A DNA stretch of 57,787 nucleotides, the filler included, from Bipalium vagum (lineage: Eukaryota), in the NCBI GenBank assembly GCA_037834085.1. It is 3 parts of 3 records of this genome, joined end to end, with 100 filler letters (N's around TTAATTAATTAA, not from the genome) between each part and the next. Parts side by side here need not be neighbours in the genome. Positions count along the whole stretch, not along the records: positions 1 to 15,745 come from JBBMKC010148527.1; 2 more parts are not named here. One strand, given 5' to 3'. A program made the translations under genes and the position numbers. This document shows positions 2,456 to 48,999 of the stretch, in pieces. The notes under the pieces were generated by a model, which worked only from the letters and a program-made list of their open reading frames with translations, was not told where the DNA came from and made no database searches. Each line of letters opens with the position of its first letter. Within the stretch, counting starts at the first letter, position 1.

Positions 2456-3231
2456 TGTTAGGTTTACCCAAGACACCCCGGGGGAAATATAACCAAGGTT
2501 CATCATAAAAAGGGTATAGATGTTAATAATAATATTAATATTAATAATTAAATTTAATTAAAACTTGAAAATAAATTTAAAATTCTCAGATATTTTTATT
2601 TTGAAAATACTTAGGACATAAAACAACCTTCCAAAAGTAATTTTTATTTTTAAAGAAGTCCTCAGAGAACGTACGAAATAAATTAAAGATTTTTTTTAAA
2701 GACAAAGATATTTGATCGAGAAAACCAAGATTTTGGCCGTTAATATTCAAGAATATTCAGATTTTTATTGGACTATGCTTAAAATTCCCCACCAGAGGGT
2801 TACCGGTAAGCAACCGTTAGGGCTCAGACGATAACTCGGGAGTTTTGACAGAAAATAAATTGTAAGAACTTTCTATTTTCTTTTAACTTAATTTTTTTTG
2901 TAAAAGTAATTATTCATTTAGTATACAAGTAATATTTTGTTTTAATTGAACTTTAATATTTTGTTTTAATTAAAATTTGATTATAATTGATTAGACATTA
3001 CGTTTAATTCATTCTTTATATTTATTGTTATTGGGTTGTATTGTGTTTTGATAAGTGGAAGGTTTGTGAAACATTTCAGACATTAATTGTGATCCCAGAC
3101 TTGATTATCTTTCTGTATTTTTTTGATTGTGTGATATAAATAAAATTGTTGCTTTACTGATTGTTATTATTTGCACCACCTAAGAGTTGGAGCCAGGTTT
3201 AAATTTAATACACTAAATAGTGAACACAACA
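2456..3231 (+). repeat. LTR (3' LTR, about 776 bp)
   Basis: Starts TGTTAGGTTTACCCAAGACACC and ends CACAACA (TGTT/AACA terminal inverted repeat). Preceded by a PPT. Colinear with 46790-47638. Confidence 0.75.
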
Positions 3232-3515
3232 ATTAATTTTTTTTCTATTAATCTATTCTGTTAATCTAAAAATTGATCTGAAAATCAATCATGCATAAAC
3301 AATTTTCATTAGACAATATATAAAAATTTAAGAGACGTTTATCTTATTTAGTTTTAGATTGTTTATTTCATTGATTATCTCATACACGGAAAACCAAATA
3401 TTAAAAAATTTAGCTATTCAATAGAAAATAATCAAGGGAAGTAATGAACAAATCAATCAATACACATTGGGGCCTTCTTTATTAGATAAATAATTCTAAG
3501 TATAATCTAATTATT

Positions 3516-3552: not shown

Positions 3553-4154
3553 AATAATAAAAACTATAAATAATGTATAAATAATATATTATAAATAATA
3601 ATAATATTATTATGATTATTATTAATAAATTATCAAATTAAATAATGGAGAGAATACTCTTTTCTTTCGTTTCAATAATTTGAAAGAATTTGTCTTATTT
3701 TTCGTGCAAGAAATATATTTTTATTTATTTATTAATTTAAATTATTATGTGTATGAGGAAATATTTTATTTTTTGGTAAATTTATAATATTTTAAAATTT
3801 ATTATTAATTTTAATATTATTTTTATTATGTTTATTTTTTTATTATAAAGAATAAAAGACCAGAATAAGAACTTTTTTAAAATAAGTAAGTAAAAAATTT
3901 TATTGAATATTTAAAAATTAATACCAAATTTTAAATCGTATATAAAAATCTAATTTGCAAATTCTTTATACATATAATTTAATATATATTTATAATATAA
4001 AATTTATTAATTTTATAAATAAATAATATTATAGAGTAATGAAATGAAATAATTGTGATTTGATAAATAAAAAATTGTTTGAATATTCACTTTTGTAATT
4101 GAAGAAAGAAATATTGATTCATTTAAATATATTGATTATCATATTTATCATTAT

Positions 4155-4530
4155 TGTGAGGATTATTAATAATATTAAAACATCAATTCAATATTATTTG
4201 TTGTTTAAATAATACGGTTGTAGGCATATACGTTGTTTTGAATGCATTTTGAAAGCGTGTTTATTTTTATGATTCCATACATCAAAAATTAAGTTGTCAT
4301 AGCTGACGTGGCGACCACTCCAGGACACCAACCAGCGAACGAGGTCTCAAAAGTGAAAATGAAAAGTAAAGGAATAGAAAATTGAAGTATGAGACTTGAG
4401 GCGGTTAAGGGGTTTGATGTGAACTTTAAAAAGAGGGGGATGTGAGATAAATTTAAAATTAGTCGGGGGATGTATCTCAGCGGTCCATGCGCATGTGAAG
4501 GCTCCCGAATTTGAATCCCGGTATCTCCGA
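4155..4530 (+). mobile_element. TRIM-like non-autonomous LTR element remnant (PBS, short internal region, PPT, TG)
   Basis: An 18-nt PBS TGGCGACCACTCCAGGAC at 4309-4326 has reverse complement GTCCTGGAGTGGTCG-CCA, a tRNA-Arg-like 3' end. PPT AAAAAGAGGGGGA at 4428-4440 is followed immediately by TGTGAG. A second TGTGAG at 4155 may be the 5' LTR start, but LTR-LTR similarity is weak. Confidence 0.5.
4466..4529 (+). pseudogene. tRNA-Ala-derived sequence (pseudo-tRNA or SINE head)
   Basis: GGGGATGTATCTCAGCGGT...GCATGTGAAGG..CCCGAATTTGAATCCCGGTATCTCC. The acceptor stem GGGGATG/TATCTCC includes the G3:U70 Ala identity pair. A and B boxes are degenerate and the D/anticodon region is partly deleted. 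Confidence 0.65.
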
Positions 4531-5249
4531 TTAATTTTCAAACTAACAATTATCATTACTTAATAATATTTTTAATATAAAAAGAGGTTCCAGAAATGAG
4601 TTTGGATGACTTTTTTAAATAAAGAACTCGCCCCTAATTTAACGATTATTAAACTTCTACAATTTAAAGTTCTTAAAAATTATTAAAATTGTTATAACTT
4701 ACAGTTTTAATGGTTATTAAATATTAATAGGAAAAATTTTAATGTATAAATTGTAAATAAAAATGGATCACATATTTGAGATTTTTTTATTAATTAAATA
4801 ATATAAATAATAACAAAAAAAGATGAGATCATTTTTTGAACATTTTGTTTGAATAATCTAAATTACAAACTTATATTATTTGCACTTTTCATATTGGTTG
4901 AAATGATATCACAAAAATATAACTATTAATTTTTATTATTATTTTATATTATTAATATTTCATCTTTTATATTTTTATTTTTTATATTATTTAATATTTA
5001 AATAAAATAAAACGTAATGGAATAAAGAGTAAATATTAAAGGAATATTTTTCAATTAATTCTATTAATTTCGTTCCTTCAAAATAATTCATTTTCCTTGA
5101 AATGTAAAATTTTTTTTAAAATTTCTTTTTTTTAACATTTTTTTCTTTATATTTCATACAAAATATATTGATGTAAATATTTGAATATTTTTCATTTTAC
5201 ATTATATATAAAAAGATTTTAAGAAAATGAGCTGGAAAAAAATAAATAA

Positions 5250-5610
5250 TGCTTTACAAATGAACATAGAGTTCCTATGAGTTTTTCTCTCTTTATACAT
5301 TTTGCCCATTCACGCCAGATTAGATAAACAAAATAATACTTATATGGAAATCTCCTACCGTTTTTGTCATTATTATAGTTCCTGGCTTATATTTGAAAAT
5401 AATGGAATAATCTTTTGAAATTTTTACATGTATCATTATTTATATTTAATGAACAGATTTGTAGAGAGGAGTGTATGTTATAAATATAAATATATAAATT
5501 CTGTTCTAAATAATTATTAATTCGGATTACATTATGTATAAATTTTTATTTTATTGATTTATCGCTCGGAACAATTTTACCATAAGCGTCCATGAGCATT
5601 CCATGAGCTT
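5250..5610 (-). mobile_element. Merlin/IS1595(ISXO2)-like transposase remnant
   Basis: Minus-strand fragments 'GKIVPSDKS', 'KPGTIIMT' and 'SGVNGQNV' resemble the Merlin motifs GKIVQIDES, IxPGTxIxTD and GxHTQxIE. Confidence 0.4.
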
Positions 5611-7926
5611 CAGGTACTGTCTTTTTTCAAATGGAATGAGAAAATGAGCACTTCGCGAAAATGTGTTCAAATTTTTACATTTCGAATTGAGTTAAACAAA
5701 ATGTTATAGTTACAATTCTAAAATATTTATTACCAAAACATTATTAAAATGTTTCTAAGGTAAAAAATATCTAAATCTGAAGATTTATGACTTAATGAAT
5801 ATTCAATAATTAATTGACATAAAAATGGATCGAATTAATTAATACATCTTATACTTTTATTTTTGTCTTTTTCTGAACTCAATTCTGACTTTAATATTAA
5901 ATAAATGGTAAAATTATTTATATTTCAACAATTTTCTTCTATATAAGGAATATATAAAAATATATAATATAATTTAAGGATACCTGAAAATTGTTAGATT
6001 TTATTAAGAATACTTGTCAATTCGTTTGGAAGAAATATATAAAATAATAAAAGCTGTAAAATATAATCAGATTTTTAATAATTTATTTCTTTATTTTTTA
6101 TATAAAATAAAATAATTTTATTCCAAATAGAAAAAATAGTTCCATTATTTTAATTATTGGAATGGAATTATTTTATATTTAAAAATTGTTTTATTATTTT
6201 ATTGATAATATTTTCTATTTTCCTAATTATAAATCCCAGGCACCGTTCTAAGATAATCGAAAAACAATAAAATTACTCCGTATTTTTTTATTTTGAGATA
6301 ATTAATTATTTTTGAACAAAGTCAAAATTCAAGAAATTGTTTTCATTTGAGTAAGTCAAGTTTTATCATTAACAAATACATTAATCGATATAATAAATAT
6401 TTAAAAAACGATAGACTCATTCTCACATCCTAATCAATGACTGGCACTTCCATTTATGGTTGCCATAGGAACATATTTAATTAATGGTCTTGGGCTTGTT
6501 TTTCACTTAAATGTTAAAATTCTCAACCAATTGCCTATGAGCTTCTAAATTTAGCTTTCATTGAGCATGTAATAACAAGCGAATTTCCTTATTGGGTTCA
6601 ATGATAAATAATATTGCCAAGTTCTTTTTAAAAAAGTACACATTCTAAAGAACGACATTATAAAACGTGTTGATTACGTTAAATAGTTGGAATTACTCAG
6701 AATTTTTTACTGTTTCTCTGAGTTGTCAAAGTTAACGTATTTTACAATAAAATATTCTCATCCTTGTCTGTGTAACAATTTTTTGGTTATTTAATTGAAA
6801 CAAAACCAGAGTAAAGGAGAATATTATTTAAAAATGCAACATTAAAGGAGGTACGAAGTTCAGAATCCAATAACCTTTATGAACTTAAATTAGATCTTTA
6901 GGACTTTTCACTTTTGTAATTAAAATTATGAGACCTGAATATTAAGCCAGTATATATTGATCTACAGTGTTATTATTAATTATTGATAATATGTAACTCT
7001 TAATTAATTAAAATTCATAATTTAATTACTAATTTTTTAACAAAATAATATTATTAATATTATAAAAAAATTATTAAAATAAAACTTTAAAATTAAAAAA
7101 TGCCCTTTATTGAAGTGCATATAAATTTAAAAATTGTAAATGGAATTTTTTGTTTAAATTAATTAAAACTTGGATCAATTTTCAAACGACATCTTTGCAT
7201 GATATTCCGATTAGACGTTTGATTATAATAAAAATTGTATTACTGAATATTTGAAACGTCCTTCACAAACGATAATAATATTCACGTATTTACAAATGAC
7301 GAAATAAATATTCCGAGGAAACGAAACCATTCTCCCAAAATCATTCGTCCTCGTTTCCCTGAAAAATGATGTCAAAATAAATTAATTAAAAAAATGTGAC
7401 TTCACGATTTCATAATCGCTCTAATTGATCCATAGACAACTCCATTTTATTTTATCATTAATGGCGGCAATTTAACATAAAATTTTTTTTTCATTACTAC
7501 ATTTTATTATATTTTTGAAAGGTGAACGAGTTACAAGTACAGCTCATTAATGTTCACAACTTATGTAGAAGATGGGTGGATTGTTTTAGTTAAATGAAAA
7601 AAGTCTTTAAAGAAAAGAATTTTGTTTTTATTTACTTTTTTATCGATTTTTAATTTTTATTAATTAAAACAAATTAATTAACTAAGTCAAATTCATTACA
7701 AGTGTGTATTATAAAGATGATCTTATCATATTATTGTTCTTTGAATGACTCATGTTCTTTTTCATTGGTTGTCGTAATGTTAGTGATTACTAGGTTATCA
7801 TTGATTTCGTTATCAGTTTAAAATTAATGAGCAACAGAACACAAAAGCTTATCCCACACCAATGGTTACCCTAATGTCTGGCATGTAACCAAAACATTGA
7901 TTATTCAAAACAAATGTGGTACATAT

Positions 7927-10450: not shown

Positions 10451-12769
10451 AGATAAAAACAATGTACCCTCACAAGCAAACGAATACGTTCACAGCATTC
10501 CAATTAAAATAAAGGCAGTCAATTAATAATTACATCATTCATAAAAAAGTCCATCCTTTAAGAAAACAGGCCATGTGTTGTATGAAATAATAATTAATTA
10601 TAAGTTCCATTACATTGTGTGCACTATAAGTGATGCAAAGCACACCTATTATCGCAGTATTTGAACACATTACTGGTAGATAAAAAGAGAAAGCATATCA
10701 ATTATGCACCCAAACCATGTAATTACACACAGCAGTCTAACTAACAATTTTAAATCTTTTAATGGAAAAAACAACCAGCAACTTAATAATCACCAATCAT
10801 TTCATTTTTCTGAATTATATAACATTATTTAGTATAATCTGAGGATTATCTTTAAGACTTTACGGTATTATATTTCCTGATATTAATTACGCAAAGTAAT
10901 TTTAAACTTTCTTTCTTTAAACGTTAAAAAACATTTTATTAAACAATAAAAATTTTTAATAAAATCCCGATGAGTTATTACTTTTAATTCTTTTATTCTG
11001 CAGAATGTTGGAAACCTCATTATGTTAACTCTCTACATAAATTCGTGAAGATTCATTTTTCAAATGTCTTTCTTCAGTGATAGTGAATCAAAACTTCACC
11101 AAAGATTAACTTTTCTTTCATAGGTTGCCTGATATAAGTCCCTTGATCGTTATCCTAATTCTATTTGTCTTATTTGGTCAGGCATTCCAAACCATAATAG
11201 TTTTAATTAATTAATGGTATAAGATCAATAAATATTTCAATTTCTAGTGACGGTTAAGTTCCTCTCACCTTCATTACATTACCACTGTTCAAGATATTTT
11301 CTAGAGAATCCAAATTATTTGGGAGGATAATGTCAGATTGATGAAAGCTCATTTGAGCAGAAGGCAAAATATCTCCGAGGATGGGTAATGGTTGACCAAA
11401 CCTGAGTATGTAGTATTGCTGATACTGGATCTAATCCACCGAAAATATATAAGATGATTGTTGTCAGCATCAACTCTACTGCATATATTAATACGAGTAT
11501 GCGAAAACGGTACTATTATTGTTAGTGATCAAGAGAGGGCTTATAATAATGTTTAAAAGTGTGATTATAACAATTTAATTTTAACCATAGTTTAAATTTT
11601 GTGGATTCCTCACACAAAGGCTAACTCTCAAGCAACAGAATCCTATTGGGCCAAGTCAAAGTACTGAAAAAAGATTAAGAAAGGTGTATAATGTGATAAT
11701 CTAGATGGATCTGGAAGGACATTATCCTTAATGATAATTAGGAAATTTTGATTGGTTTGTTAAAAATATATGGTTTTTATTTATATCTTTGTTGTTCTTA
11801 TTTATATTTTAAAAATATAAAAAGGAAAATATTCAAAAATGAGGTGGAGAAAAGGTATATGATTAAATAACACCGAAAAATATATTTTCCAAAAAATATA
11901 ATCAATATTATTTTAAAATGTGACTTGTTTTAAGCATTTAAAATATAATTAAAAAGAATTCCGCGAAAAAAGACAAGTATCAGATTTTTCTAGCAATAGC
12001 CAAAACAACATTTTCTCCCGTTTTTGGTGAATTTAATTTACTTAATATTATTTTTATTAAATATAAATATATGTGGAATATTTCTCCCTTTTCCGTCACG
12101 GATTATTTTCCCTTTTCCAGGCTGACTTTTTTTTTACGACCTGGGTTTCAGCAGTGGAGTAAAATAAATCTCAACCGGGAAGTGTCAAGCGGTGTTAGAG
12201 GATATCAACAAATTTCCCTGTGATAATATCACTGTACGGTTTGACTGGTATTTTCCGAGGAAAACATGTTAAATAAATAAAATATTGACAGAGAATTATT
12301 GATTTTACAGTGATTTTATAACTGATTCCGTATTGCTCATTTCTTCTAGGATCTCCTCAGTTTCTTGAGGGAGTTTGATCGACCCTGGTGATTATTAGAA
12401 TGATAAAGAGGGAGAAATTAAATTGAGGTTAATTTCATATATGTTTGTATTATCCGATAGAGATTTGCGTCCTCCCCTTGTTGAAAGACTAATCTAAAAG
12501 GAGATTACCTAACTAAATTGATTTCATGATTTAATTTAATTTGGGAGATGATTACATGTGAAACAATTATTAATTGTGTTACAAATATCCGTGGTACGAA
12601 GTCCATTCAGAAATGTCTTAAACTAAGTAAGAAACATTTAAACTTGAAAAGGAAACTCTTGTTTTACGGGTTGTACTTTTGCAATTAATTTGAAAAATTA
12701 AAAAAGAAACCGTATGTTCATAATTACATTTGGTACATTTTTTTTAGATCTTAAGAATGTCAAATTGTA

Positions 12770-13130
12770 AGAGATACACGATAACTGGTTATATCAGGAA
12801 ACGAATAGTTGGAAATTACAATGATGGGAGAACACTGAAGGACTTGGTAAGTACATTCTCTTTACTTAAAGGAACCATTAGTGGTAATGTATCTGTGTAT
12901 AAAAAAAGGACTCATTGAAGGTTAAAGAAGAGAAGGCTGAAGAATTTGCAAGCAACTTTAGAAATAAAAGAATTTATTCTTGATGAAGTCGACAATAAAA
13001 AAGATATTAGTCTGAAAATTTTTAAAAAAAAACTGGACAATGGAAAAATTCAAGGTTAGTTTATCAAAGATTGTAATTGTCTGAATGGCTTCCATTATTC
13101 TTTTAAAAATAATTATGGTAATTACACTGT
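12770..13130 (+). mobile_element. Tc1/IS630-like transposase N-terminal HTH remnant
   Basis: 'RYTITGYIRKRIVGNYNDGRTLKDLVSTFSLLKGTISGNVSVYK...IKEFILDEVDNKKDISLK' has the paired-like HTH layout. Confidence 0.5.
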
Positions 13131-14499
13131 CTGGTACCAGAATTACTAAGAATTATAAAATTTCCTGTATCACTTTGTTATTCAAGTTTAAAAGTTTCTT
13201 ATTATGTTTACAACATTTGTTAATGAACTTAAAACCCTGTGAATGGATGAGTATGAAAATGTAACAAAAAAGAAATGTCTGGTGATGGAAATACTTTGAC
13301 TTCAATTTAAAATGAATGAATGGAACTCCTAAATGACAAAACAATAATTGAAACTATATTACAGAATAATATAATCCTAAGAACATTGATGACACTGACA
13401 AACCTGGAGAAACTGAATCAGAATTGGTGATCATTAGTAAAAGAGATGGCTAGTTACAAACGATTCAATCGTTTTATAGAGCAATGCTGAACAAAAATCG
13501 AAATACTTTAATCAATTGAACACCAGGTACAACTCATTATTTTCAACAATACGTCGGAGGCAAGAGAAATAACTCCGGATACTTGGTTTAAGACCCGGAA
13601 GAAAACTATTTTTTACATTTTCTGTCGTTATCGCCTAGCTTAATTAAAAAATTATTTTTATTTTTATTACCACGAATTATGATAAAAATCAATTTTCTCG
13701 ATAATATCAAGACCCGGTTAAAATCATAATTTTCTCTGTAACGGACATCGTCATACCAATTCAGATGTTTTAATTTGCAAATATTTTAACAATTTTTTAT
13801 ATTTAATTTTTCGAAAAATTATATTTTTATTTTTTATAAATATAAATAATATTATTAAACATTCATAAGCCATTATTCAAAATAAATACATCATAAAATC
13901 AAAATTTGCTTTTTAAGGAGTGGCTCATAATACATAGCTTTCTCCTTAACGGAAAATTTATATTATTACGGAGTTTTAAACAGTAAAGTTCTGTCTCATA
14001 AGTTCACAGCTGCAAGCCTAACATTTTTGATCTAATCAATATAAAATTCTTTGATCCATTTTGATGACTCATATTGTAAGAGAAATGAGTACCAGTTATT
14101 GTATTTTGTGATCCAGTACAGTTTTCTCCTTATGGATATTAATTAAATGGGAATTTTTACATTATTATTTTTCGAGTTTCATTTTTATTTTTAATGGTAA
14201 ATAATATTTTTTAATAAAAAATAAAATATAGAACACAGTCATTCTAACGCAATAATAAAAATTATTGTTATTATTATTATTAGGAAAATCCATAAGTTTC
14301 CGTTGCTAACATATTCATGACATTTTAAATATTATTATAACATATACGCAGTATTTGGAAACATTTGTTTAAGTTTGTTATTATTGATTATATTGATATG
14401 CATGACCACAAAATTTATTTAAATTAGCCGATATATCCCAAGAAATATTTATGGAAATTGATAAAATGAATATATGTTGTCCCTTTTCAATCAATACAA

Positions 14500-15745: not shown

Positions 15746-15845
15746 NNNNNNNNNNNNNNNNNNNNNNNNNNNNNNNNNNNNNNNNNNNNTTAATTAATTA
15801 ANNNNNNNNNNNNNNNNNNNNNNNNNNNNNNNNNNNNNNNNNNNN
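15746..15845. other. artificial 100-nt contig spacer (44N-TTAATTAATTAA-44N)
   Basis: A six-frame-stop linker is flanked by equal N runs, identical in structure to 33663-33762. Confidence 0.9.
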
Positions 15846-17564: not shown

Positions 17565-20500
17565 ATGTCAGATGAGATCTTAAATTTACAGTCTATTCAT
17601 CCATTTAAGACAAGCAAAACTAATATTTGCAATAATCAGAGGTATAACACAATTGATTCGCATTCGGGATTGCTTGCTTCTGCTGCAGAAAAGGGTATAC
17701 GTTGTGGTTAACATTTAAATTTTGTTTAATAATAATTAGGTATATACATTTATGATTTAAATCATTATGAAAAGTGCAGCGAAGAGTCAACTGCTAGAAA
17801 AGACAAATTAATTGACCAGAAATCAATTTTAAAAATATATGACTCTGAAGAATTTTCCTGGCTTGAATTTAACTGTGATGGTTCATTACTATTAATAACA
17901 AGTTCAGACGATGTTGGGGATGTGAAAGCCATAAAAATAATCGATGTTAATAAAACAGTACAAAAGGTAAATTATTTTTATTAGATTCAGTAATAAATTT
18001 TACAATAGCAACATGAAACTATTTTGTGTACTTTCCAACCAAATTCACCTTTTAAATTGAATGACTTGAAATGGCATCCAACTGAAAGCAAATTACTGTT
18101 AATAGTGTTAAATGACACAGTCAACTTGTGCTCAGTCAAAAGTGGTGAATTATTAATCATTAATTCAAAAACAAACAGTTTCTGTGGTAAATTTTGATAG
18201 ATATTTGATAGCATTAAATAAATATAATTAAGCATCATGGAGTCCAAAGGGTAAACAGTTTTCAGTAATAATGAAAAGTGGAACAAACGGAAATTTTATT
18301 ATCAATCAATATGACAACATGATGGTGGAGAAAAGATCTACAGAAATGATAAATGTTTCTAATGAATTCAAAGGTATTTGTTTGACTGGAATATATAACT
18401 TTATCTTTGATTATAAGAAATTTTTAAAGCTTTTTGTCAATTACACATTTTTTATTAAGTAACTTGTCTTGTATAATTTTTTATTACACTTCAATAATTA
18501 ATTTTAACAATATATATAATTAATGCTTGTTTCCGATAATAATTTTTCTTTTTATTCACCATTTCAACCAAATTTATTATATTTGATTTTTAGTGAATTT
18601 CGATCTGATTCCAATTGATATATATTGGTACTCCACCTACAATTATATTATTGGATTCCGTGGACAGACTCAAGATACCGAAAAATTTAAAATATATACC
18701 TGTAGTTTTGGAATTGTAATATTTATTATTTTTATATACATATGGTCAATAAATTCATTAAGAAATCAAATATTCAAGTGTTATCTAATGTTGCAAGTTC
18801 TAATGACTGTATTAATCCCAATCCCGGACCTCTTGCTCGCTTGTATTTTCTACATATCATGGATTGGAATTTGATTGTCCTAGCAAATAATAGCTGTGAG
18901 AGTGCTGTAATCTATGGATATGATAAGGATTCAAATGTATTAAATTGTTATATGTAATTATTTTATTTTCTAATTCAGTTGGAAATGCTCAGTACATATT
19001 GCTTGCCGATCGAGGGTAATGTTGTTGGGTTGTCTTGTGATTTCACTTCTGAAAAAACATTCATTTCTCCTGTGACTAAAAATTTATTGTCATACCCTAT
19101 GCTTCTTATTAATATGAGCAATGGAAATTTGTTCGGAATTTATTTAGTCCATATAACCAAGACATTAGAGAAAAAACACAAAATAAAAAGTTTATTAGAA
19201 ATTTTTATTTTAGTCACATTTTACTTTATTAATTCTAGTTCCAGAGAGTAAATTGATTTCAAATGAAACAGTTATAGGTAACGATTTTCATGTTGAAAAT
19301 TCTGATACTGGTCTATCCAATGTGTTACATAAAAATGATTTTGAAAAAACTAAACAAAGTGTCGAAGTTGTGGACAAGAGTCAGCAAAGTTTAAACAATA
19401 TTACGACAAAACAAGAAAAAACGGAAATTGTTATTTCTGCAAGACCAAATTTGTTTGGAACTACAAACAATACAAATTTGGCAAAAACTAATTTATTTGG
19501 ATCTCCAAATGAAAATCCAATGAATCCTTTAAAAACAAATATGTTCGCTTCAACCAATACAGTGACTTCTACAACAAACATATTTGGCTCTGCCAATGCA
19601 GTGAGTGATTTTAAGCCAAAGTTATTCGGAACACAGACAACTGAAAGTGATTCAAAACCAACTTTATTTGGAACACAGAAAACTGAAAGTGACTCTAAAC
19701 CAAATTTTTTTGGAACACAGACAACTGAAAGTGATTCAAAACCAACTTTATTTGGAACACAGAAAACTGAAAGTGACTCTAAACCAAATTTTTTTGGAAC
19801 ACAGACAACTGAAAGTGATTCAAAACCAAATTTATTTGGAACACAGACAACTGAAAGTAATCTGAGACCGAATCTTTTCGACTCCGTCAATACAGCGAGT
19901 GATTCTAAGTTTAACTTATTTGGATCATTGAATTCGCAGTGTAATGTTAAATCAAAACTATTTGATTCAATCAAGGTTGAAAATATTCAAAAATCAAACT
20001 TGTTTGCATTAAAAAATTCAGACATTGGTAATAAAATAAATCCTTCTGCATCCAAAACCATTGATAATAGATCTAACCAAAGTAGTTTATCAGAAGCAGA
20101 ACAGTTAGAAAACGTTTCTGGTGTAAGCTTATCAAAATCCGAGCAGTCTGAAAAAAACATTCAAATTACTTCAAGTCTGAAAACTAATGCAGAAAATTGC
20201 ATATTTAGTGCATCGAGCAAAAAATTTGAAACAAGTACAGTTATACCAAACACAAATAAAAATATATTTCCGAATAAAATTTCTGCTAACTGTAAAATGG
20301 AAGATCATAAAGCAAATAAACCTGTTATAAATAATTTTCAGAATCAGGGTTCTGGTGATAGTGAGAAAACAGGTAAGAATTTTCTTGTTATCCAGGTTTC
20401 TGAGACTTGATTAAAAAAATATGATTATTATCAAAATACTTATTATGTTTAGTCACAAGATAACCTTTGATTGATTTCATTAGATTTATTTATTTATTAT

Positions 20501-23500
20501 TTGGTTAACTATGATTAGATTTTAATTATTTTAATTATAATAATTATTCATGAAATCTGAAATTTCTTACAAATATAAAATTATTTGCATAACTTAAACT
20601 TTTGATGTTTATTAAGTAACGAATTAAAATTTTCATTTTTTAACTAATTATTTTGACATTGAAAGCTCGATATTTTTCCTTGAAATCGGATTTCTTTCGT
20701 TGAAATTTTTGGTCTGATTTAGAAGATTATGATTTGGTACTAATCAATCTGATTTCTCTTTTAGAAACGTCTGACAAATTATTTCAATTTTAGTTCCAAG
20801 TAGAGAATTTCAGTATTTTACTTATCAATATTTAATATTATTTTAAGAATTATAAGTTTTTAATTTTGGTGTAATTATGATATGATATTATATATGAAAA
20901 AACATATGATATTATATAAATACATTTTGAAAATATTATTTTCAGATAAGTTGGTCATGGATAAAAAGACCCAGAAAACCGTAGTCAATGAAGGTAAAGC
21001 ACAAGGAAACAAAAGCTCATTGAAAATAGAGATGATTGACAATGTTCTTGTGGTATAACTCATTATACAGGAATTATGGATATAAATATTTTTAGGATGC
21101 CGTCAAATATTTAGAAGAGAGATTTTCACAAATTAAAATCAATATTAATAATCATATTTTAAAGTCCCAACAGTTTTTCAACAGTGATTCAATGAAATAT
21201 GAAATACCTTTAATGTTCAGCGATACAGAAAAATGTAACATCAGTCTTAAAAAGATAGAAACGGTACATTTTGATTGACAGCTTTTTATATATTTTCTTT
21301 ATGGGTTTAGTCCAACAACAGTTTGAATTTGAAGTCAATATCCCTTCTCCAAGATATTGAAATATCACTGGAATTTACCTCTAGACTACAGTCAGCAATT
21401 TCAGAATCAAAGGTTAAAAACAAATCCATAAAACCAACTGCAAATCCGTTATTGAAGAAAACTGCACTGAACCTTGTGGATTTGAAAGAAAAAGTCAATT
21501 GTGGTTTGAAAGATTTGGAGGAGGCTTTGGATCAGATTGAAAAAGAAAGGTTAAATAGTTTTTTACTCATACAAAAGTAATACTGAATTACTTATTTTTA
21601 GAAATTACGAACCAATTGTTTTGAGAAATCAATATCAATTGGACGATGTCAGTCGAATTCTTAACGCTTATCGTAAATCCATGTGCATTGAAAAATCGAA
21701 AATCGATTTATTGAAGAAACATTTGAAAGAAGTCAGCAACCCAGAATTCGATGACGTATACAATTATACGAAATTGATAGATGCAAAATCACAGGTTAAA
21801 GATCAGAGAATGGAGCAACATTTATATTCCTTGATGTGTAAAAGACCAGTGACAAAATTGAAATTTTATTCAGAAGAATGTAATTCTTCTGGCGCGACTG
21901 CTAATGTGAACAAATCATTAAAATCACAATTACGGCACACAAATGCACCTAGAAAGTCAAGCGAACATGTTATCCATAATGAAGTGAAAAATACAATGCA
22001 ATCTCCCAGTTTTAAATTGGTCGATAAAAACATTTATAAGAGTCCTTTGAAAAATGAACAAACAAATCAGGATAAAAGTTCAATTCATTTCGAAGGGAAA
22101 CCTACACTATTTTTAAATAAGTCCACAGAAAAACAAGTATTTATCACTACTGCTCCAACATCACATCAGGGACCAGTGAAAACTATATCAAGTCTGTCGA
22201 GTAATATGCAAAAATTTACAACGGAAAACAACGACAAAAATTTGATGAGATCAACATTTCCCGTGAAGTCCGAGGTTTGTTCAACTTCGAAAATTGAAAA
22301 TTCTAATTTTTCAATTCCTAACGCGTCTATATGTTCTGTAAATAGCCTTCCTAGGACCACAAGTACGATAAGCGCTTCGCAATCATTACAATCTTCATTC
22401 AGTGTTACGGCAAAACCTGCAGAATTGGCAGAGAGATCAAATGATCAAAGGAATTGTCAGCAGGTAACCAATACATTAAAATCCGAAAAAGTTCTTGAAA
22501 CTAAAGAAAATAAAGTTATAGTCGTTACAAATTCTGTGATGTCTAGTGCTGCTCAAACAATAATAAAAATTTCAAGTTCAGAATCTCTAATCAATGTGTC
22601 ACCCGACTGCCAGACTGCTATCCAAAATACCAAAGGACTCAATGCATCAGTAAATTTGATTTCAACGAAAACTACAATTACAGAATCAAATCCATCTCAT
22701 AAATTTAGTGAAGGCTTATTTTCAAATTCTGCAATAAATAAAAAGCTTAACACGCCTGGTTCAGGATCAGTTGAAAGTAATTCCTTAGATCAAACGAATA
22801 ATGTGTTACTTGGGTCTTCAATAGACACCATCAATACATCACCATTGGGTACATCTTCAAAGACTATTACTGGTAATCTTTTTGGTGACAATAATGCAAC
22901 AAGTCAATCTGGAATGGGACTTTCTGCTTCAAAGCCGACACTTATAACGACAAGTATAGTACTTTCGACATCATCTTCACAAATAAGTGGACAATTTGCA
23001 AATTCTAAATCATTTTTCGGAACGTCAGCCGTAAAATCTTCATTTCAACAGCAACCAGGGATCTTTGGACAAACTGGTTCTAGTAAACCCAATAGTGGAT
23101 TATTTTCAAGTCCTGTAACTTCATCTCAAGGACTGTTTTCACCATCTATAATAAATATACAAAAAAGTGATGATGAACTTTGTTCCATTCAATCTACCAA
23201 TTCCGATAAAACAACAATTTCCACAGAATTATTGAACCAAAATCTACTATTATCTACTACTAGTGAGTCTGTGCAGGGATTGTTCACCAGCTGTACCATA
23301 TCGACTAGCTTGCCAATACAAAAATCTGAATTATTTGCTGCTACTAGTGAAAATCAGAGTGTCACTTCTATTTCAGAATCTGAAAATAAATCTAATACCA
23401 CCAATTTGTTTGCAGTATCATCTTCATCAACACAATCCCCAAGTCTATTCAGTACAAATAAACCAAACGGGGGATTGTTTGGTAGTATGACGAGTTCCAG

Positions 23501-25215
23501 CGGTTTATTTTCTTCTCCCAATCAAAATCAAAAGGGAGGAATATTTGGAAGTCCGGCAACACCGAGCTTGAATAGCACTTCGTTGTTTGGTTCATCAGGA
23601 GTCAGTGATGGGACAAATGCTAAGAATGTTTCAGAAGTAACCAATAAACCAACTGGTGGATTGTTTAGTAACAGTCCCGTAACCAATTCGACATTGTTCG
23701 GGTCATCCAATAATACCAACAAATCAGAGTCTGGATTATTTGGCGTTGCTTCAACGAACAAGCCTACATCAAACTTATTCGGAAATATCACGAAATCAGA
23801 TCAAAGTAGTAGACTATTAACAGATACCACCAAAGCACCGCAAAATTCAACAAATGAATTTATTTCAAATCCAGCGTTGAGTACTGGAACTGTTGGTCTT
23901 TTCTCGACATCGAAATCTGGAACTGGCGGTCTTTTCTCGACCTCGTCATCGAATTCTGGAACTGGTGGTCTTTTCTCGACCTCGACATCGAATTCTGGAA
24001 CTGGTGGTCTTTTCTCGACCTCGACATCGAATTCTGGAACTGGCGGTCTTTTCTCGACCTCGAAATCGAATTCTGGAACTGGCGGTCTTTTCTCGACGTC
24101 GACATCGAATTCAGGAACCGGAGGATTGTTTTCATCTAATCAGAGAAGCGCTGGACTATTTTCAAATACCACTTCGAGTCCAGGAGGTGGGCTTTTCTCT
24201 AATTCATGTCAAAATCAAGGCGTTACACCATCATTGTTTGGTGGAGGAGCAACAGCAAATAATTCACAATCAGGTGTTGGTTTAAACCAATCTAGTCAAT
24301 CCATCAATAGTGGATTATTTGGAAATACCACAGTATCGAGTCAGCCCTCGGGTTTTTTTGGTAAAAATGCCGTATCTCCAAAATCCGGAAATCTCTTTGA
24401 AAGTACAAATTTATTCGCTTCTCAACAAGAACAAACTAAAACAAATTCTACTTCGTCTGGTAAAACTTCTTATTTCATATAATTGACAATTATTATTATT
24501 TGTAACAGGTTTTTCTTTTGGGTAAGATTGAGGATAAATTTCTGATTCCATATTGATTTGGTTCAGCTCTTCATTTATCAGCGGATTAGGTGGAAGTCAG
24601 ACTTCAAATAATTCTTCAAATATATTTGCATCGGTAAGAACGAGCACAACTACAGGAAGTAATTATAATAACCTTTTGATTATTAATCAGTCAATTAATT
24701 AAGATTCAAGTAGTTTATTTGCAACCAATAATCAAACCAGTAGCCTGTTTTCATCTAACAACTCAAAGGTGAACAATGCTCAGCCATCGTCTCTATTTGG
24801 TTCTCGTCCATCTTTTGGTAGTACAGCACCCAGTCTGGGACAAAATAATAATGTTCAACAGGGAACGGGGTTATTTACCAGTTCGATTTTTGGAAATTCA
24901 AATGAGTATTGTTTTCTATTATTATTATTAATCAGATAATCTTTTTTTAACAATTAATTTATTAATCTTATATTTATTGATTTTGTATTACCATTATTAA
25001 TTATTAATATTCCTCATAACACTTAAGTAATCAAATGACATTTGGAGACATGGCAACGAACCGAGCTAATCAAGATTCTTTTGGAGTCAAATCAAATGAT
25101 AGTTTTCAAGCAGGAAATCTCTTTCAATCAACGTCGTCAAGTGATATCTTTTTAATCCTTGTTCATGGTTAATATTATTTTATCAGGTCCTTCCTTCACT
25201 CAACGACGAATGTAA
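17565..25215 (+). CDS. NUP214: nucleoporin Nup214/CAN (Nup159 orthologue), 17 coding exons, about 2040 aa
   Basis: Hand-spliced exons: 17565-17694, 17740-17966, 18009-18186, 18233-18373, 18594-18715, 18763-18936, 18979-19189, 19239-20372, 20946-21052, 21096-21263, 21311-21549, 21602-24459, 24509-24521, 24582-24658, 24704-24905, 25028-25140, 25187-25215. All introns are GT-AG with consistent phases (6123 nt in total). The protein has propeller motifs 'WLEFNCDGSLL', 'DLKWHP' and 'SWSPKGKQ', a coiled-coil middle, an FG/GLFS tail, 'FSFGGLGG' and the C-terminus 'PSFTQRRM*'. Confidence 0.88.
19613..19880 (+). repeat. coding tandem repeat, about 6 x 42 nt (KPxL/FFGTQT/KTESDS)
   Basis: Near-identical 14-aa units with an 84-nt higher-order dimer lie within Nup214 exon 8. 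Confidence 0.9.
23885..24135 (+). repeat. coding tandem repeat, about 6 x 39 nt (SGTGGLFSTSTSN)
   Basis: Near-identical units are visible in both DNA and protein within Nup214 exon 12. Confidence 0.9.
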
Positions 25216-26689: not shown

Positions 26690-27409
26690 CAATAATAGAC
26701 AATCTTAAAACATTCATAGCCAAACTGCAAAACTGGCGAGGTAAAATGGATATATGAAACATGGTAATGTTCAAAAAACTATCCAGTATAATAGAAGAAT
26801 TTAAATGCGAAACCAATGTCCATTAAAAAAAAGAGATCACAAAACACCTTTAATCTCTTGAAAATGAGCTTGTGTATTATTTCCCCGAGTTGACTACGGA
26901 AGAAGCTTTACTAGTACGATATCCATTTTCTGATTCGGTTGATATATCCAGTATTCCTGATGATTTGCAAAATGAATTCTTGGAATATAGGAACGATTCT
27001 GCGGCTCGCCACTTATATGACGAAAATCTGCTGACTCAGTTCTGGTGTTCTATGTATAACTCATATCAAAAAGTCACAATGATGTCTTTTAGAATTTTAC
27101 TTCAATTTGCTTCAATATGTGAGAGTGGATTTTCAACACTTCTGCAATTGAAAAGTAAAGCAAGAAACCGACTCAATGTTAATGCCGAAATGATGTTGGC
27201 ATTAACACAAATCAACCACGTATTTTAAAGCTCGTCAATGAGTTACAATATCAACAGTCTCATTAAGATTTGGTGATTGAATAAATGTTTTGTTATTAAT
27301 AATAAATTATTAGTAAAATTAATTGTTATTGAATTTCATATAGTGGGATCGCCAACATTTGTTTGGTTCAAAAATGGGGTAGCGATACCAAAAAGGTTGG
27401 GAAACCATG
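26690..27409 (+). mobile_element. hAT (Buster/Charlie, ZBED5-like) transposase C-terminal remnant with 3' TIR
   Basis: 'LTQFWCSMYNSYQKV...ILLQFASICESGFSTLLQLKSKARNRLNVNAEMMLAL' is the hAT dimerisation domain. The element ends AAAAAGGTTGGGAAACCATG, a Charlie-type terminus. Confidence 0.85.
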
Positions 27410-33662: not shown

Positions 33663-33762
33663 NNNNNNNNNNNNNNNNNNNNNNNNNNNNNNNNNNNNNN
33701 NNNNNNTTAATTAATTAANNNNNNNNNNNNNNNNNNNNNNNNNNNNNNNNNNNNNNNNNNNN
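33663..33762. other. artificial 100-nt contig spacer (44N-TTAATTAATTAA-44N)
   Basis: Same linker structure as 15746-15845. Confidence 0.9.
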
Positions 33763-38645: not shown

Positions 38646-39079
38646 ATAACAGTTTATATTAAATTTATATATATAATTTATAAACTTATCTAATATTATA
38701 ATTTATAATAATATTTATTATTAGATAAAATAATTTTATTTTCTTAAAAAAATAGCAGAAAACATTAACGATCCACTGGTTTTTATCTCTCCCGTTTGAA
38801 TGTTAATATTTGGTTACCTTTCTTTGATTAATAATGATTCACAGATCTTTCATTCATCATTATTATCAAATTATGGGAAACTTTGATAATAATAAATGAC
38901 ACACTGTCTTCCCTATTTATAGATGACCACATCCATGACATTGGAATTTGTACACGATTTTAGCTTGCAATGGTTTTGGAGTCACTGTTTTGATTTTTTA
39001 AAAATTCTTCGTTTTTGCTATTAGAAATATTACTTTTAGATCTTCATTTATTGTCTGTAATATTTTACTTTTAAAAATC

Positions 39080-39295
39080 ATTATGAGCATTCTCAAAAAA
39101 GTAGAACAAGCAAAGTGTTGGATCATACTGTAGCTGCAAAGACAAGGAAATAAATATGCCAATGAAAATGAGTTTTCTGTAGTAATGATCAACTTTAATA
39201 ACGATGAAGGAAAAAAAATATGCGAATCATTAGTAATTAAAAAACTGAAACCAGAAATTAATTCAAAAAACGGAGAAAGCAGAAATCAATGGATG
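39080..39295 (+). mobile_element. Penelope-like element GIY-YIG endonuclease C-terminal remnant
   Basis: 'EHSQKSRTSKVLDH...NEFSVV...KKICESLVIKKLKPEINS' matches the R..EH / E...I....P.LN pattern of PLE endonucleases. Confidence 0.6.
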
Positions 39296-39450
39296 ATTAA
39301 TGTTTTCCTTAATTAATATTTTAAAAAAATTTTAAAATATTAAAAAATGATATTTTTAAAGTTTTTAGAATTAAAAAATTTTTTTTTACTTTTTTTACTT
39401 TTATCCAATAATAATGTAGATATATAATATATTATTATTATATAATATAA

Positions 39451-39800
39451 CAGGGTGTTTATTATGTATGTTAGCATACTTGCATTTTAAATATTTAAAC
39501 AAACGATAGAGATATAAAGTAGGTAATACTTTTTTATTTGAATAACATATTTAAAAACAAATACAATATTTAATTATATAATTTGAAGCCCGTTAATAGC
39601 TAGGCAATAGCTTAATAGAGACATCACACTTAGACTTGCTCGCTGACACATTCCAGTATGTACTTCATTACAACATGACATTTTAAAATTAACTAAATGG
39701 ATTATTAAACTTTTAATCCATATAAACAAATTGGTAATACATTTATTTTTAACTTGTAATTTAAGAATAAAGTATGTTAACATACATAATAAACACCATG
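39451..39800 (-). mobile_element. non-autonomous Tc1/mariner derivative (MITE-like) with ~30-bp TIRs
   Basis: CAGGGTGTTTATTATGTATGTTAGCATACTT at the left end pairs with AAGTATGTTAACATACATAATAAACACCATG at the right. The interior keeps the transposase C-terminus 'MCQRASLSVMSLLSYCLAING'. Confidence 0.75.
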
Positions 39801-40639
39801 TATATATCTGGACATTCTCCATCTCAAGATTACACAGAGGTTTGTTTATCGCATTATTAATAAACAGAACCAGACTTCTATTAATGAATAAACCTCACAC
39901 TGGTAAGCCATGTCTTTTAAGGACATTAGTAGTCATTAAGCCATTTAAGACTCGAGTTAACAGTAATCCAGCGGGAGAGAAAAGTTTCTGTAAAAGAGCA
40001 AATTAAAATAATCATTAAAAAGATGATAAGCGAGGAGCTATTACTTGACGCTTATCGACAAAAAGGCCACCATCTCAATCAAAGCCTGAAAAAAGTGATA
40101 CATTGAAAATCAAAGTGGCTTCTGCAGCATTTGGTGGACAAAATGTATCGTCAAAATTTATTCCCTGTCTAGCGATATTTCACAATTGAACAATATACAA
40201 ACAAACGGAATGTTAGACTGTATGCTCGCCACAGTAACGAAGTTTGGGAGAAGGTTTCTACGGTACAGAGAAGCTATAATCTGTCATCTGTCATAATTTG
40301 GTTATGTGTATCTTACTTGTGCTTCACTGCAGAAACCTATCAAAATTTGAGGATCGTCTTAAAGGACCGGTTATACTAAAACTAAATTCTGGATAAGAAA
40401 GACTTACTCATAGATTCAACAATGTTTAAAAATAATCATTACTTTTCAGAAGGATTCTGAATCACCTCATAAATCTTTGATTGATGTTCTTGAATCATAT
40501 GGAGTAAAAGATTAATCATTTTTAGAGGTTTGGAAAAGTTTATCCTACTTTAGTCACAATAGTTATTTAAAAATATATAAACATGGAATGTTCTGCTATT
40601 GAGCATTGTTTTTAATACTTGAGTGAAGATAACAGGTAA

Positions 40640-46789: not shown

Positions 46790-47638
46790 TGTCGGGTTTA
46801 CCCAAGACACCACCCCCCGGGAATATGTAACCAAGGAAAAACATGAAAAGGGATATATATGTTAAAAATAATAATCATAATAATAATATTCATAATTAAA
46901 GTTAATTAACAATTGAAAAACAATTAAAAATTCCCATATATTTTTATTTTGAAAATACTTAGAAAATAAAACAACCCTCCAAAAGTAATTTTTATTTTTA
47001 AAGAAGTCCAAAAGAGGTAAATTATAAATATTAATGGTCATCAGAAAATAATTTTTAGGGAATTTTAAGATTAATTTTGAGATTATTTCAAGAATAATCT
47101 CCAGTTGAAGATCAGTTCAGAAAACTATATAAGCAGAGGGATTCTAGCATAATTTCACCCTGGTAAAAATAGTTTTTATCAAAAGTTATTCGTAAAGATG
47201 ATATTTGTTTAAGAAGATTGTTATTCGCTGTTATAGAAAATATTCAAGTATATTCAGATTTTATATTGGACTATGCTTAAAATTCCCCATCAGCGGATTA
47301 TCGGTGAGCAACCGTTAGGGCTCAGACGATAACTCGGGTGTTTTAGCGGAAGATAAACCGTAAGAACTTTCTAATCTCTTTTATCTTTATTTTTTTCTAT
47401 TTGTTAAAGAATTATTAATATTGATTAATTTAGGGTACAAGTAATATTTTGTTTTAATTGAACTTTGATTATACAATAATTGATTTTTATTGGACATTAT
47501 TGTTGAGACATTATAGTTAATTAATTCATTCTTTATAATTATTGTTATTGGATTGTATTGTAACTGATTGTTATTATTTGCATCACCTAAGAGTTGGAGT
47601 CAGGTATAAATTTGATACATTAAAAAGTGAATAAAAAT
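46790..47638 (+). repeat. solo LTR of the family at 2456-3231
   Basis: Shares the 5' end, the block AACCGTTAGGGCTCAGACGATAACTCGGG and the 3' end with 2456-3231. The central segment differs and contains TATATAA. No PPT or PBS is adjacent. Confidence 0.75.
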
Positions 47639-48999
47639 AAGTTTTTATTATTTACTTTTTGATCATTTATTGTTATTATTATTTTTATTTATTATATAAT
47701 TCTCAATTCAAATTCCCATCACCCATTATGTTTGAGAGAAAATTGTCTATTCCCCAGCCTGATTCATAAGAAATAATTATAGTATTCCTTTTAAAATAAA
47801 TATAATTAATTAATTAATTGAATTTGTTTTTCTACATTAAATTAATGATCCGAAGTAATTCATTTCATTTTATTGATTTATAAAGTGAAGTTTTTTTATT
47901 GTAAATAAAATAAATTTTTATAATTAATTAAAATATTAAACTAATTTAGATTTTCACATCATTTATTATATTTTTCTTACATAATAAACAATAATTTATT
48001 TAAGAGAACTTTTCTCGTTTCATTGTAAATAAAAATAATCAAAAAACTGTTTTATTTTGTTTATTTATGTTGTACTTTATTTTTGAGTATTTATAGATTA
48101 TTATAAAGTAGATTTAATCCAATGATTTTTACATTTTACATTCTCTTATCTCGGAAAGTAAGAGGGCTTTTCACTCTTGCAGGTATTTATTTCGCTCTTT
48201 ATTTGTAAATATTTAATCAGTTCCTAGTGCCTTTTATCCTTCAGATATACAGAGTAAACATATTTCCTTTCATAATCAAAATGGATCATGAAAGGAAATG
48301 ATCTTAATTAAATAAAGGTTCATCCATCTTTATAAGCAAACAGAAAGGATGTGTGGAATATGGTTAGATTTAGAGCTTGTGTTATTCAGCAAATAGATTT
48401 GATTCATAAGCTTACTAGTTAAAAATAGATGTCGAAAAATTAGACGTGAAAAATTAGTATCAAATCGCATTTTGAACATGAGGGTCAACTTTATTTAAGA
48501 CTTACAAATTTTTATTCAAAATGTCCCGCAGAACATTTGCTTCTTGTTAGATTGAGTTAATGTAATGTCGTTAGTTTAAAAACGGAAAAACTTTTTTTTC
48601 AAGTTCTTGAGGCTACGAAATTGTTGAGGTAATGTTTAAACATCATCCAGATCTCTTAATCTATAGATATAATGAAAGATTGTAAACAAGAGGTCGGGGG
48701 GTAAAGAAAATAGGAGAATGCCAATTTGGATACGCGCACAATCATTGTGGTGTAGATTTTTACACGTATAATATTTACTTTTCGTGAAAAATGCTTTTTA
48801 TTTCTCTCGGACAATACTTGACTTAATTTTAAAATTTCTGATTCATTTCCTCAATTTGGTAGACTTAATTCTACTCGGTAATCATATAAATCTGCTTAAA
48901 GAGGCTGAAATGGAACTTACCTGTTTATCATTATCGGTATCGTTTTTTCGTCTAATTTCACTTTTTGCAAAGATCTTATTATTGACTTAGGACATGTGG

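Follow-up and report, generated by a model that had tools for sequence, protein, structure and literature searches.

The closest described relatives of the element reported here are the Helenus elements, also called TRIMp3 (Kojima, PMC10886601). They are non-coding TRIMs of less than 1 kb that carry a tRNA-derived segment with A and B boxes in short LTRs with TG...CA ends. They also have a PPT and a PBS for the 3' end of a tRNA unrelated to the one in the LTR, and their LTRs far outnumber their interiors (PMC10886601). A Helenus interior has been found to match the leader of a helper while the LTRs of the two differ. Pol III transcription of Helenus is itself unvalidated, Cassandra being the only such TRIM for which it was shown, and by what means helpers are found by TRIMp3 elements is left open in Kojima's discussion (PMC10886601). 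Cassandra and Ajax are likewise TRIMs with a fragment of a Pol III gene in the LTR; they differ in that the fragment is 5S rRNA rather than tRNA and in their hosts, which are plants and nemerteans (PMC10886601).

Two other systems bear on the locus. The flatworm element ta-TRIM, from taeniid tapeworms, shares terminal LTR bases and the PBS with a candidate helper, lennie, and makes TSDs of 4 or 5 bp (PMC4558846). It differs from the element described here in its LTRs of about 198 bp, its 590-bp interior and its tRNA-Leu primer; the available part of that report mentions no tRNA in the LTRs and states that ta-TRIM was not found in Schmidtea mediterranea (PMC4558846). In plants, chimeric or complex elements with two parents are known, some with TSDs pointing to an origin during reverse transcription (PMC1950507; PMC13570524). 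The ones described there have three or more LTRs, whereas the locus described below has two unrelated LTRs around one interior. Because normal reverse transcription gives identical LTRs (PMC6894440), unlike LTRs need an explanation.

Here we describe such a locus in Bipalium vagum (GenBank assembly GCA_037834085.1). The window, that is, the whole stretch of DNA analysed, is 57,787 nucleotides long, and all features of the locus are given on the plus strand.

Results

Structure of the locus

The whole unit is 394 bp long and has ATTAT, the candidate TSD, at either side (4150-4154 and 4549-4553). It begins with a 154-bp LTR-like repeat of a second family, without a recognisable tRNA core, that occupies the place of the 5' LTR (LTR-A, 4155-4308). 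The PBS (4309-4326) follows without a spacer, and then come a non-coding, purine-rich interior of 101 nt (4327-4427) and a PPT of 13 purines (4428-4440). The PPT adjoins the 3' LTR, a 108-bp TG...CA repeat (LTR-B, 4441-4548), with TGTGAG starting at 4441. Within LTR-B lies a tRNA-Ala-derived core with remnants of an A box and a B box (4466-4529), and just past it a T4 run (4535-4538) that could serve as a leaky Pol III terminator. A T-run scan found this to be the sole run of four or more T in 4309-4560, the interior having none. Counted with PBS and PPT, the non-coding interior is 132 bp, and the copy as a whole is below the limit of about 1 kb for Helenus.

A preliminary description made from the sequence had placed the PBS, an interior of about 100 nt and the PPT abutting TGTGAG at these positions, and a check of the sequence found all of them there. 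The tRNA-Ala-derived segment that it saw 25 nt past the LTR start is also present from 4466, in decayed form and with a likeness judged by eye. The extent of 4155-4530 had to be revised: its motifs stand, but the tRNA-bearing unit runs on past 4530 to the CA at 4548, and 4155-4308 is an LTR-like repeat of another family. A search of the rest of the window for further copies of either LTR or of the interior gave short AT-rich matches only.

Primer binding site

The 18-nt PBS pairs with the 3' end of S. mediterranea tRNA-Arg(ACG)_1, CCA included, at 17 of 18 positions; it covers tRNA positions 59-76, and the mismatch is at 4319 (comparison by eye). The reference was taken from the S. mediterranea rows of Table S1 of PMC7962491 and is not the host's own gene. 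In that table the expected 7-mer occurs at 12 places in three rows: tRNA-Arg(ACG)_1 and two pseudogenes, in which the match is internal. The PBS is not matched by the S. mediterranea rows for Arg(TCG) and Arg(CCG). At 4319, most other copies also differ from this copy (68 contigs). The match to a host tRNA-Arg that had been expected was thus obtained with a planarian Arg(ACG) tRNA, at 17/18, and by eye against S. mediterranea rather than against the host. The first 10 bases of the PBS occur once in the window with one mismatch allowed, which is weak evidence alone (a match was found in 22 of 100 shuffles). We also considered the PBS as a minus-strand fragment of a tRNA-Arg pseudogene. This was rejected, as the match ends at 18 nt with CCA, adjoins LTR ends, and is followed in many contigs by a conserved leader.

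A dispersed family with a tRNA-bearing LTR

Contigs of one public sequencing run were aligned on 4050-4750 at 80% likeness, and 1,621 of 1,835,864 were placed. The assembly may itself derive from this run, which is therefore not independent evidence, and summed contig depth is not equal to true copy number. Depth was 17,000-132,000 over 4434-4553, with sharp edges; past these it fell to 66 and then to 20, compared with about 20 for the exact contig of the locus itself. These data suggest that LTR-B is present in thousands of copies in the genome, this being a depth ratio and not a true copy number. Unrelated DNA stood before 4441 in at least 50 contigs and after about 4541 in at least 87 (6 of 259 loose-end rows, among the matches listed). 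Given the depth profile and these unrelated flanks, the stretch 4441-4548 is not a bare tRNA but a dispersed repeat that opens with TG and closes with CA.

The PPT, at 4432, was covered by 39 contigs of other copies. Among the best 8 of 1,678 pieces, four ran from the PBS (4320) through the interior into LTR-B (4458-4485); pieces 5 to 8 crossed the interior with gaps. From the 39 contigs and the four spanning pieces we conclude that the PPT-LTR-tRNA junction is multi-copy. The earlier question whether multiple copies keep the junction of PPT, TGTGAG and tRNA can thus be answered with yes, for the contigs of one run rather than for the whole genome.

Joints of the end of LTR-B to the PBS were found twice among the best 15 of 20 (four contigs with a depth of 98.8, and two contigs with a depth of 29.8). 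The 3' part of LTR-B also led to the PBS in 8 rows among the best 12 of 19, and the best row keeps the LTR terminal bases in between. Therefore, the tRNA-bearing LTR also stands directly 5' of the PBS in other copies, and tandem arrays would yield the same joints. Depth was 21,779 at 4314-4337 compared with 250-520 at 4362-4409, and of the interior the first 35 nt or so are conserved between copies and the remainder is variable.

Pieced together from these junctions, the family appears to have the order LTR-PBS-interior-PPT-LTR, a length of about 350 bp and a tRNA sequence in its LTRs; a single contig with two tRNA-bearing LTRs was not seen among the aligned contigs of the run. The idea of a TRIM family with a tRNA-derived segment in its LTR is supported, with LTR-B adjoining the PPT and, elsewhere, the PBS. 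The alternative offered beside it, a TRIM interrupted by or adjacent to a tRNA or SINE, found no support, as the repeat has its edges at 4441 and 4548 and is tied to PBS and PPT. We rejected a tRNA-derived SINE (SINE2), which would show a 5' tRNA head, a body and a 3' tail of A or of a simple repeat, too: the core sits within the repeat, which starts with TG 25 nt before it, ends with CA 19 nt after it, and is linked to PBS and PPT.

The tRNA-Ala core

Compared by eye with Ala-type tRNAs in the S. mediterranea rows, the core agrees at 17 of the first 19 nt, in an identical 11-nt run (4491-4501) and at the end of the acceptor stem. ARAGORN called no tRNA at the core with default settings and called one only at a 70% threshold (4466-4529), and Rfam gave no tRNA match, no 5S match and nothing else relevant at the element. 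Because of these two results, the tRNA segment of LTR-B is best read as a decayed remnant. Identity with Cassandra was rejected, since Rfam shows no 5S match and the core is tRNA-like. A metagenome scan with the tRNA-core motif gave 0 matches.

The copy at this locus differs from most aligned contigs at the A box (4475) and the B box (4508-4509), and depth over the core dips at 4482-4505. Between its D loop and its anticodon arm, about 9 nt are also missing. The damaged boxes and the loss of about 9 nt indicate that this copy is likely dead. For the family, analogy with known elements makes it likely that the tRNA-like segment is used as a Pol III promoter.

LTR-A and the hybrid

The preliminary description had cautioned that no second tRNA-bearing LTR was seen upstream. 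This holds, and the place is taken by LTR-A. Contig depth climbs from 66 to 4,400-6,900 at its start (4155), where it begins with TGTGAG, and its terminal CA at 4308 was read by six contigs joining LTR-A to the PBS (125.6 of a depth of 168.9). One contig of 3,785 nt, which comes from another locus, matches 4152-4359 with 33 mismatches; the alignment takes in LTR-A, the PBS and a further 33 bases. LTR-A forms a repeat family of its own, and elsewhere too it adjoins this PBS. Its normal partner may be a different, longer interior; a joint from the PPT to LTR-A was not among the best 15 of 20 joints.

Neither an A box nor a B box was found in LTR-A, and its whole-length similarity to LTR-B was not significant, the score being reached by 622 of 1,000 shuffles and, with lenient scoring, by 81 of 500. 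The two LTRs have their first six bases (TGTGAG) in common, share ends of the CT(G/A)ACA type, and both adjoin the PBS without a spacer. A 204-nt contig of single-copy depth covers 4260-4463, and with it both junctions, without a mismatch, so the join is present in the reads as well as in the assembly. The locus is a hybrid with two unlike LTRs around one interior, and we hold this, jointly with the family structure described above, with high confidence.

Flanks

The 5-bp flank match falls exactly at both outer LTR edges, and an exact 4-bp duplication was not found there. In 400,000 random position pairs, the chance of a 5-bp match was 0.3-0.4% and that of any 4-, 5- or 6-bp match 1.4-1.6%. 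The flanks also have a 9-mer in common, no more than 12 nt from the edges, for which the chance is below 0.1%, a statistic picked after the site was seen. The insertion site is low-complexity and AT-rich, and the left copy of ATTAT lies inside a short ATTATC-type tract. Animal Helenus elements have TSDs of 4 bp (PMC10886601), compared with a 5-bp match in low-complexity DNA here. We conclude that the ATTAT pair is likely the TSD of the hybrid.

Discussion

Relation to Helenus

On the features that can be read from its DNA, the family is a TRIM of the Helenus (TRIMp3) type, a known kind described in 2024 (Kojima, PMC10886601). The earlier supposition that a tRNA promoter in a TRIM LTR would be new does not stand, as Helenus was already published from six animal phyla (PMC10886601). 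An LTR of 108 bp and an interior of 132 bp fall within the ranges among the rows listed in Table S1 of the survey. Helenus has two matching LTRs, whereas the copy here has two unlike ones; it derives from the family as a hybrid and does not count as a canonical member. Among the matches listed in the survey, Arg primers are Arg(TCT), in wasps only, and the primer here is Arg(ACG). The terms Platyhelminthes, Schmidtea and Dugesia and the start of this PBS gave no match in the whole supplement of PMC10886601. In the open literature searched, neither a flatworm Helenus nor an unlike-LTR hybrid of this form was found in print. What is new here is probably, relative to the 2024 survey, a Helenus-type TRIM in the host phylum and a primer missing from that survey.

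The interior, with its Arg(ACG) PBS and its PPT, ties the tRNA-Ala repeats of this genome to a complete TRIM of the Helenus type, and the abundant LTR-B copies matter for tRNA gene annotation. The copy itself adds two unrelated LTRs and a likely TSD to the Helenus picture.

Origin of the hybrid

We propose the following life cycle for the family, by analogy with animal Helenus. Pol III would start at the tRNA-like sequence within the 5' LTR, and the transcript would read through the first T4 run, take in PBS, interior and PPT, and end at the T4 run of the 3' LTR, giving an RNA of about 320-330 nt. A Gypsy-type helper would package this RNA, tRNA-Arg(ACG) would prime it, and integration would follow. 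In the case of the hybrid, an element with LTR-A would have been co-packaged, and its plus-strand strong-stop DNA would have used the PBS common to both to anneal with the minus strand of a TRIM cDNA. The product would be linear DNA that carries LTR-A at its left end and LTR-B at its right end. As both ends share terminal motifs, a single integration would have been possible, leaving the 5-bp duplication. With no repeated R region and with damaged boxes, the hybrid would be a dead end.

A family cycle of the Helenus type, combined with a hybrid formed by a plus-strand jump at the shared PBS, is in our judgement the best explanation overall and a probable one. The likeliest route to the hybrid is a plus-strand jump, at the shared PBS, from one co-packaged cDNA to another, and ectopic recombination is its main rival. 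The second strand transfer depends on PBS homology (PMC6894440); a review describes this transfer as intramolecular in the retroviruses studied (PMC12789967), which counts against a jump. LTR-A is plausible as the LTR of a helper, because ta-TRIM and its candidate helper likewise share terminal LTR bases and the PBS. The more specific proposal, that LTR-A is the LTR of an autonomous Gypsy helper or of a tRNA-less sister TRIM and that the locus records an intermolecular plus-strand jump inside a virus-like particle, is offered tentatively.

The hybrid may also have arisen after integration, if a separate LTR-A element and a tRNA-bearing TRIM on the same strand recombined in their shared PBS and leader, the intervening DNA was lost, and the flanks match by chance. 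Ectopic recombination is the usual origin of complex plant elements, which then are without a TSD (PMC1950507), and chimeric TRIMs carrying LTRs of other families are known in sugar beet (PMC13570524). The roughly 50 nt of shared homology (piece 1 of the aligned contigs) support this route, and so do the AT-rich flanks and the 4-bp rather than 5-bp TSDs of animal Helenus (PMC10886601). However, it predicts unrelated flanks, and the match found at both edges is rare by chance whether counted for 5 bp or for any length of 4-6 bp, as is the shared 9-mer, that statistic having been chosen post hoc. On balance we consider this route possible but doubtful. A single integration, whether by a strand jump or with later conversion, has somewhat better than an even chance against ectopic recombination, because a prior of about ten to one for the ectopic route was weighed against a likelihood ratio of about 15-20 from the flank match, by our own estimate.

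A normal insertion could instead have had one LTR overwritten later from the other family, through gene conversion or cDNA recombination by way of the PBS, the leader and the terminal bases, with the TSD kept. Such an event accounts for the TSD without an intermolecular strand jump, and the termini do share TGTGAG and CT(G/A)ACA-type ends. At the outer end, however, it would have to resolve within a homology of only about 6 bases, and we regard it as improbable.

Still less probable is a remote kinship of the two LTRs, in which LTR-A would be an eroded sister family of LTR-B with a decayed tRNA core, so that two subfamilies of one lineage were joined. The last 40 nt of LTR-A and LTR-B do score above shuffles (reached by 2 of 500, and by 7 of 1,984 random window pieces), and the lenient alignment is co-linear. 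But 40 nt was one of five end lengths tried, the whole-length scores given above are not significant, LTR-A is without the boxes, and several of the end positions that match here are different in other LTR-A copies. A chance tRNA pseudogene or SINE head beside a deleted LTR element, or an assembly artefact, could be argued from the GGGGATGT motif that the tRNA start and the PPT-LTR junction have in common, but is very improbable given that the repeat edges at 4441 and 4548 are not tRNA ends, that the repeat is joined to PPT and PBS in many contigs, and that the exact single-copy contig spans both junctions.

If the plus-strand jump at the PBS is true, the locus would be a genomic fossil of a Helenus RNA co-packaged with its helper and would offer a route to the identity of TRIMp3 helpers. 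It would also mean that unrelated LTR elements can be joined through only an 18-nt PBS. Hybrids with their joint at the PBS would indicate the helper and would make co-packaging testable from genome data alone.

Neighbouring sequences

The window is AT-rich, with a GC content of 20-37%. About 50 bp downstream of the element a third repeat starts (4602-4750 and beyond), with a summed depth of 230-880. Another LTR-like family, of about 800 bp and starting with TGT(T/C)(A/G)GG, has copies at 2456-3245 and 46790-47650 that are 80-85% alike, as well as a 5' fragment from 3516. Alignment against the sequence upstream of the PBS showed this family to be unrelated. The copy at 2456-3245 is preceded by a purine-rich tract, and just upstream of that copy lies a purine-rich, stop-riddled, ORF-like region (360-2340), whose frames gave no Pfam match and which may be a large retroelement's decayed 3' interior.

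A gene for an FG-repeat nucleoporin spans 18009-24936, with Pfam Nucleoporin_FG in three ORFs and a weak WD40 match upstream. Protein searches with part of one exon gave no homologues, and from its architecture we take the gene to be Nup214-like. An ORF at 26854-27225, with no Pfam match at E 0.01, resembles by eye the C-terminus of a hAT transposase. At 15746-15845 and 33663-33762 the same stretch, 44 N on either side of TTAATTAATTAA, occurs identically twice; it is an assembly linker and not genomic DNA. Short elements at 38758-39307, 39445-39807 and 12599-13230 have inverted ends that are 74-86% alike and are possibly MITEs.
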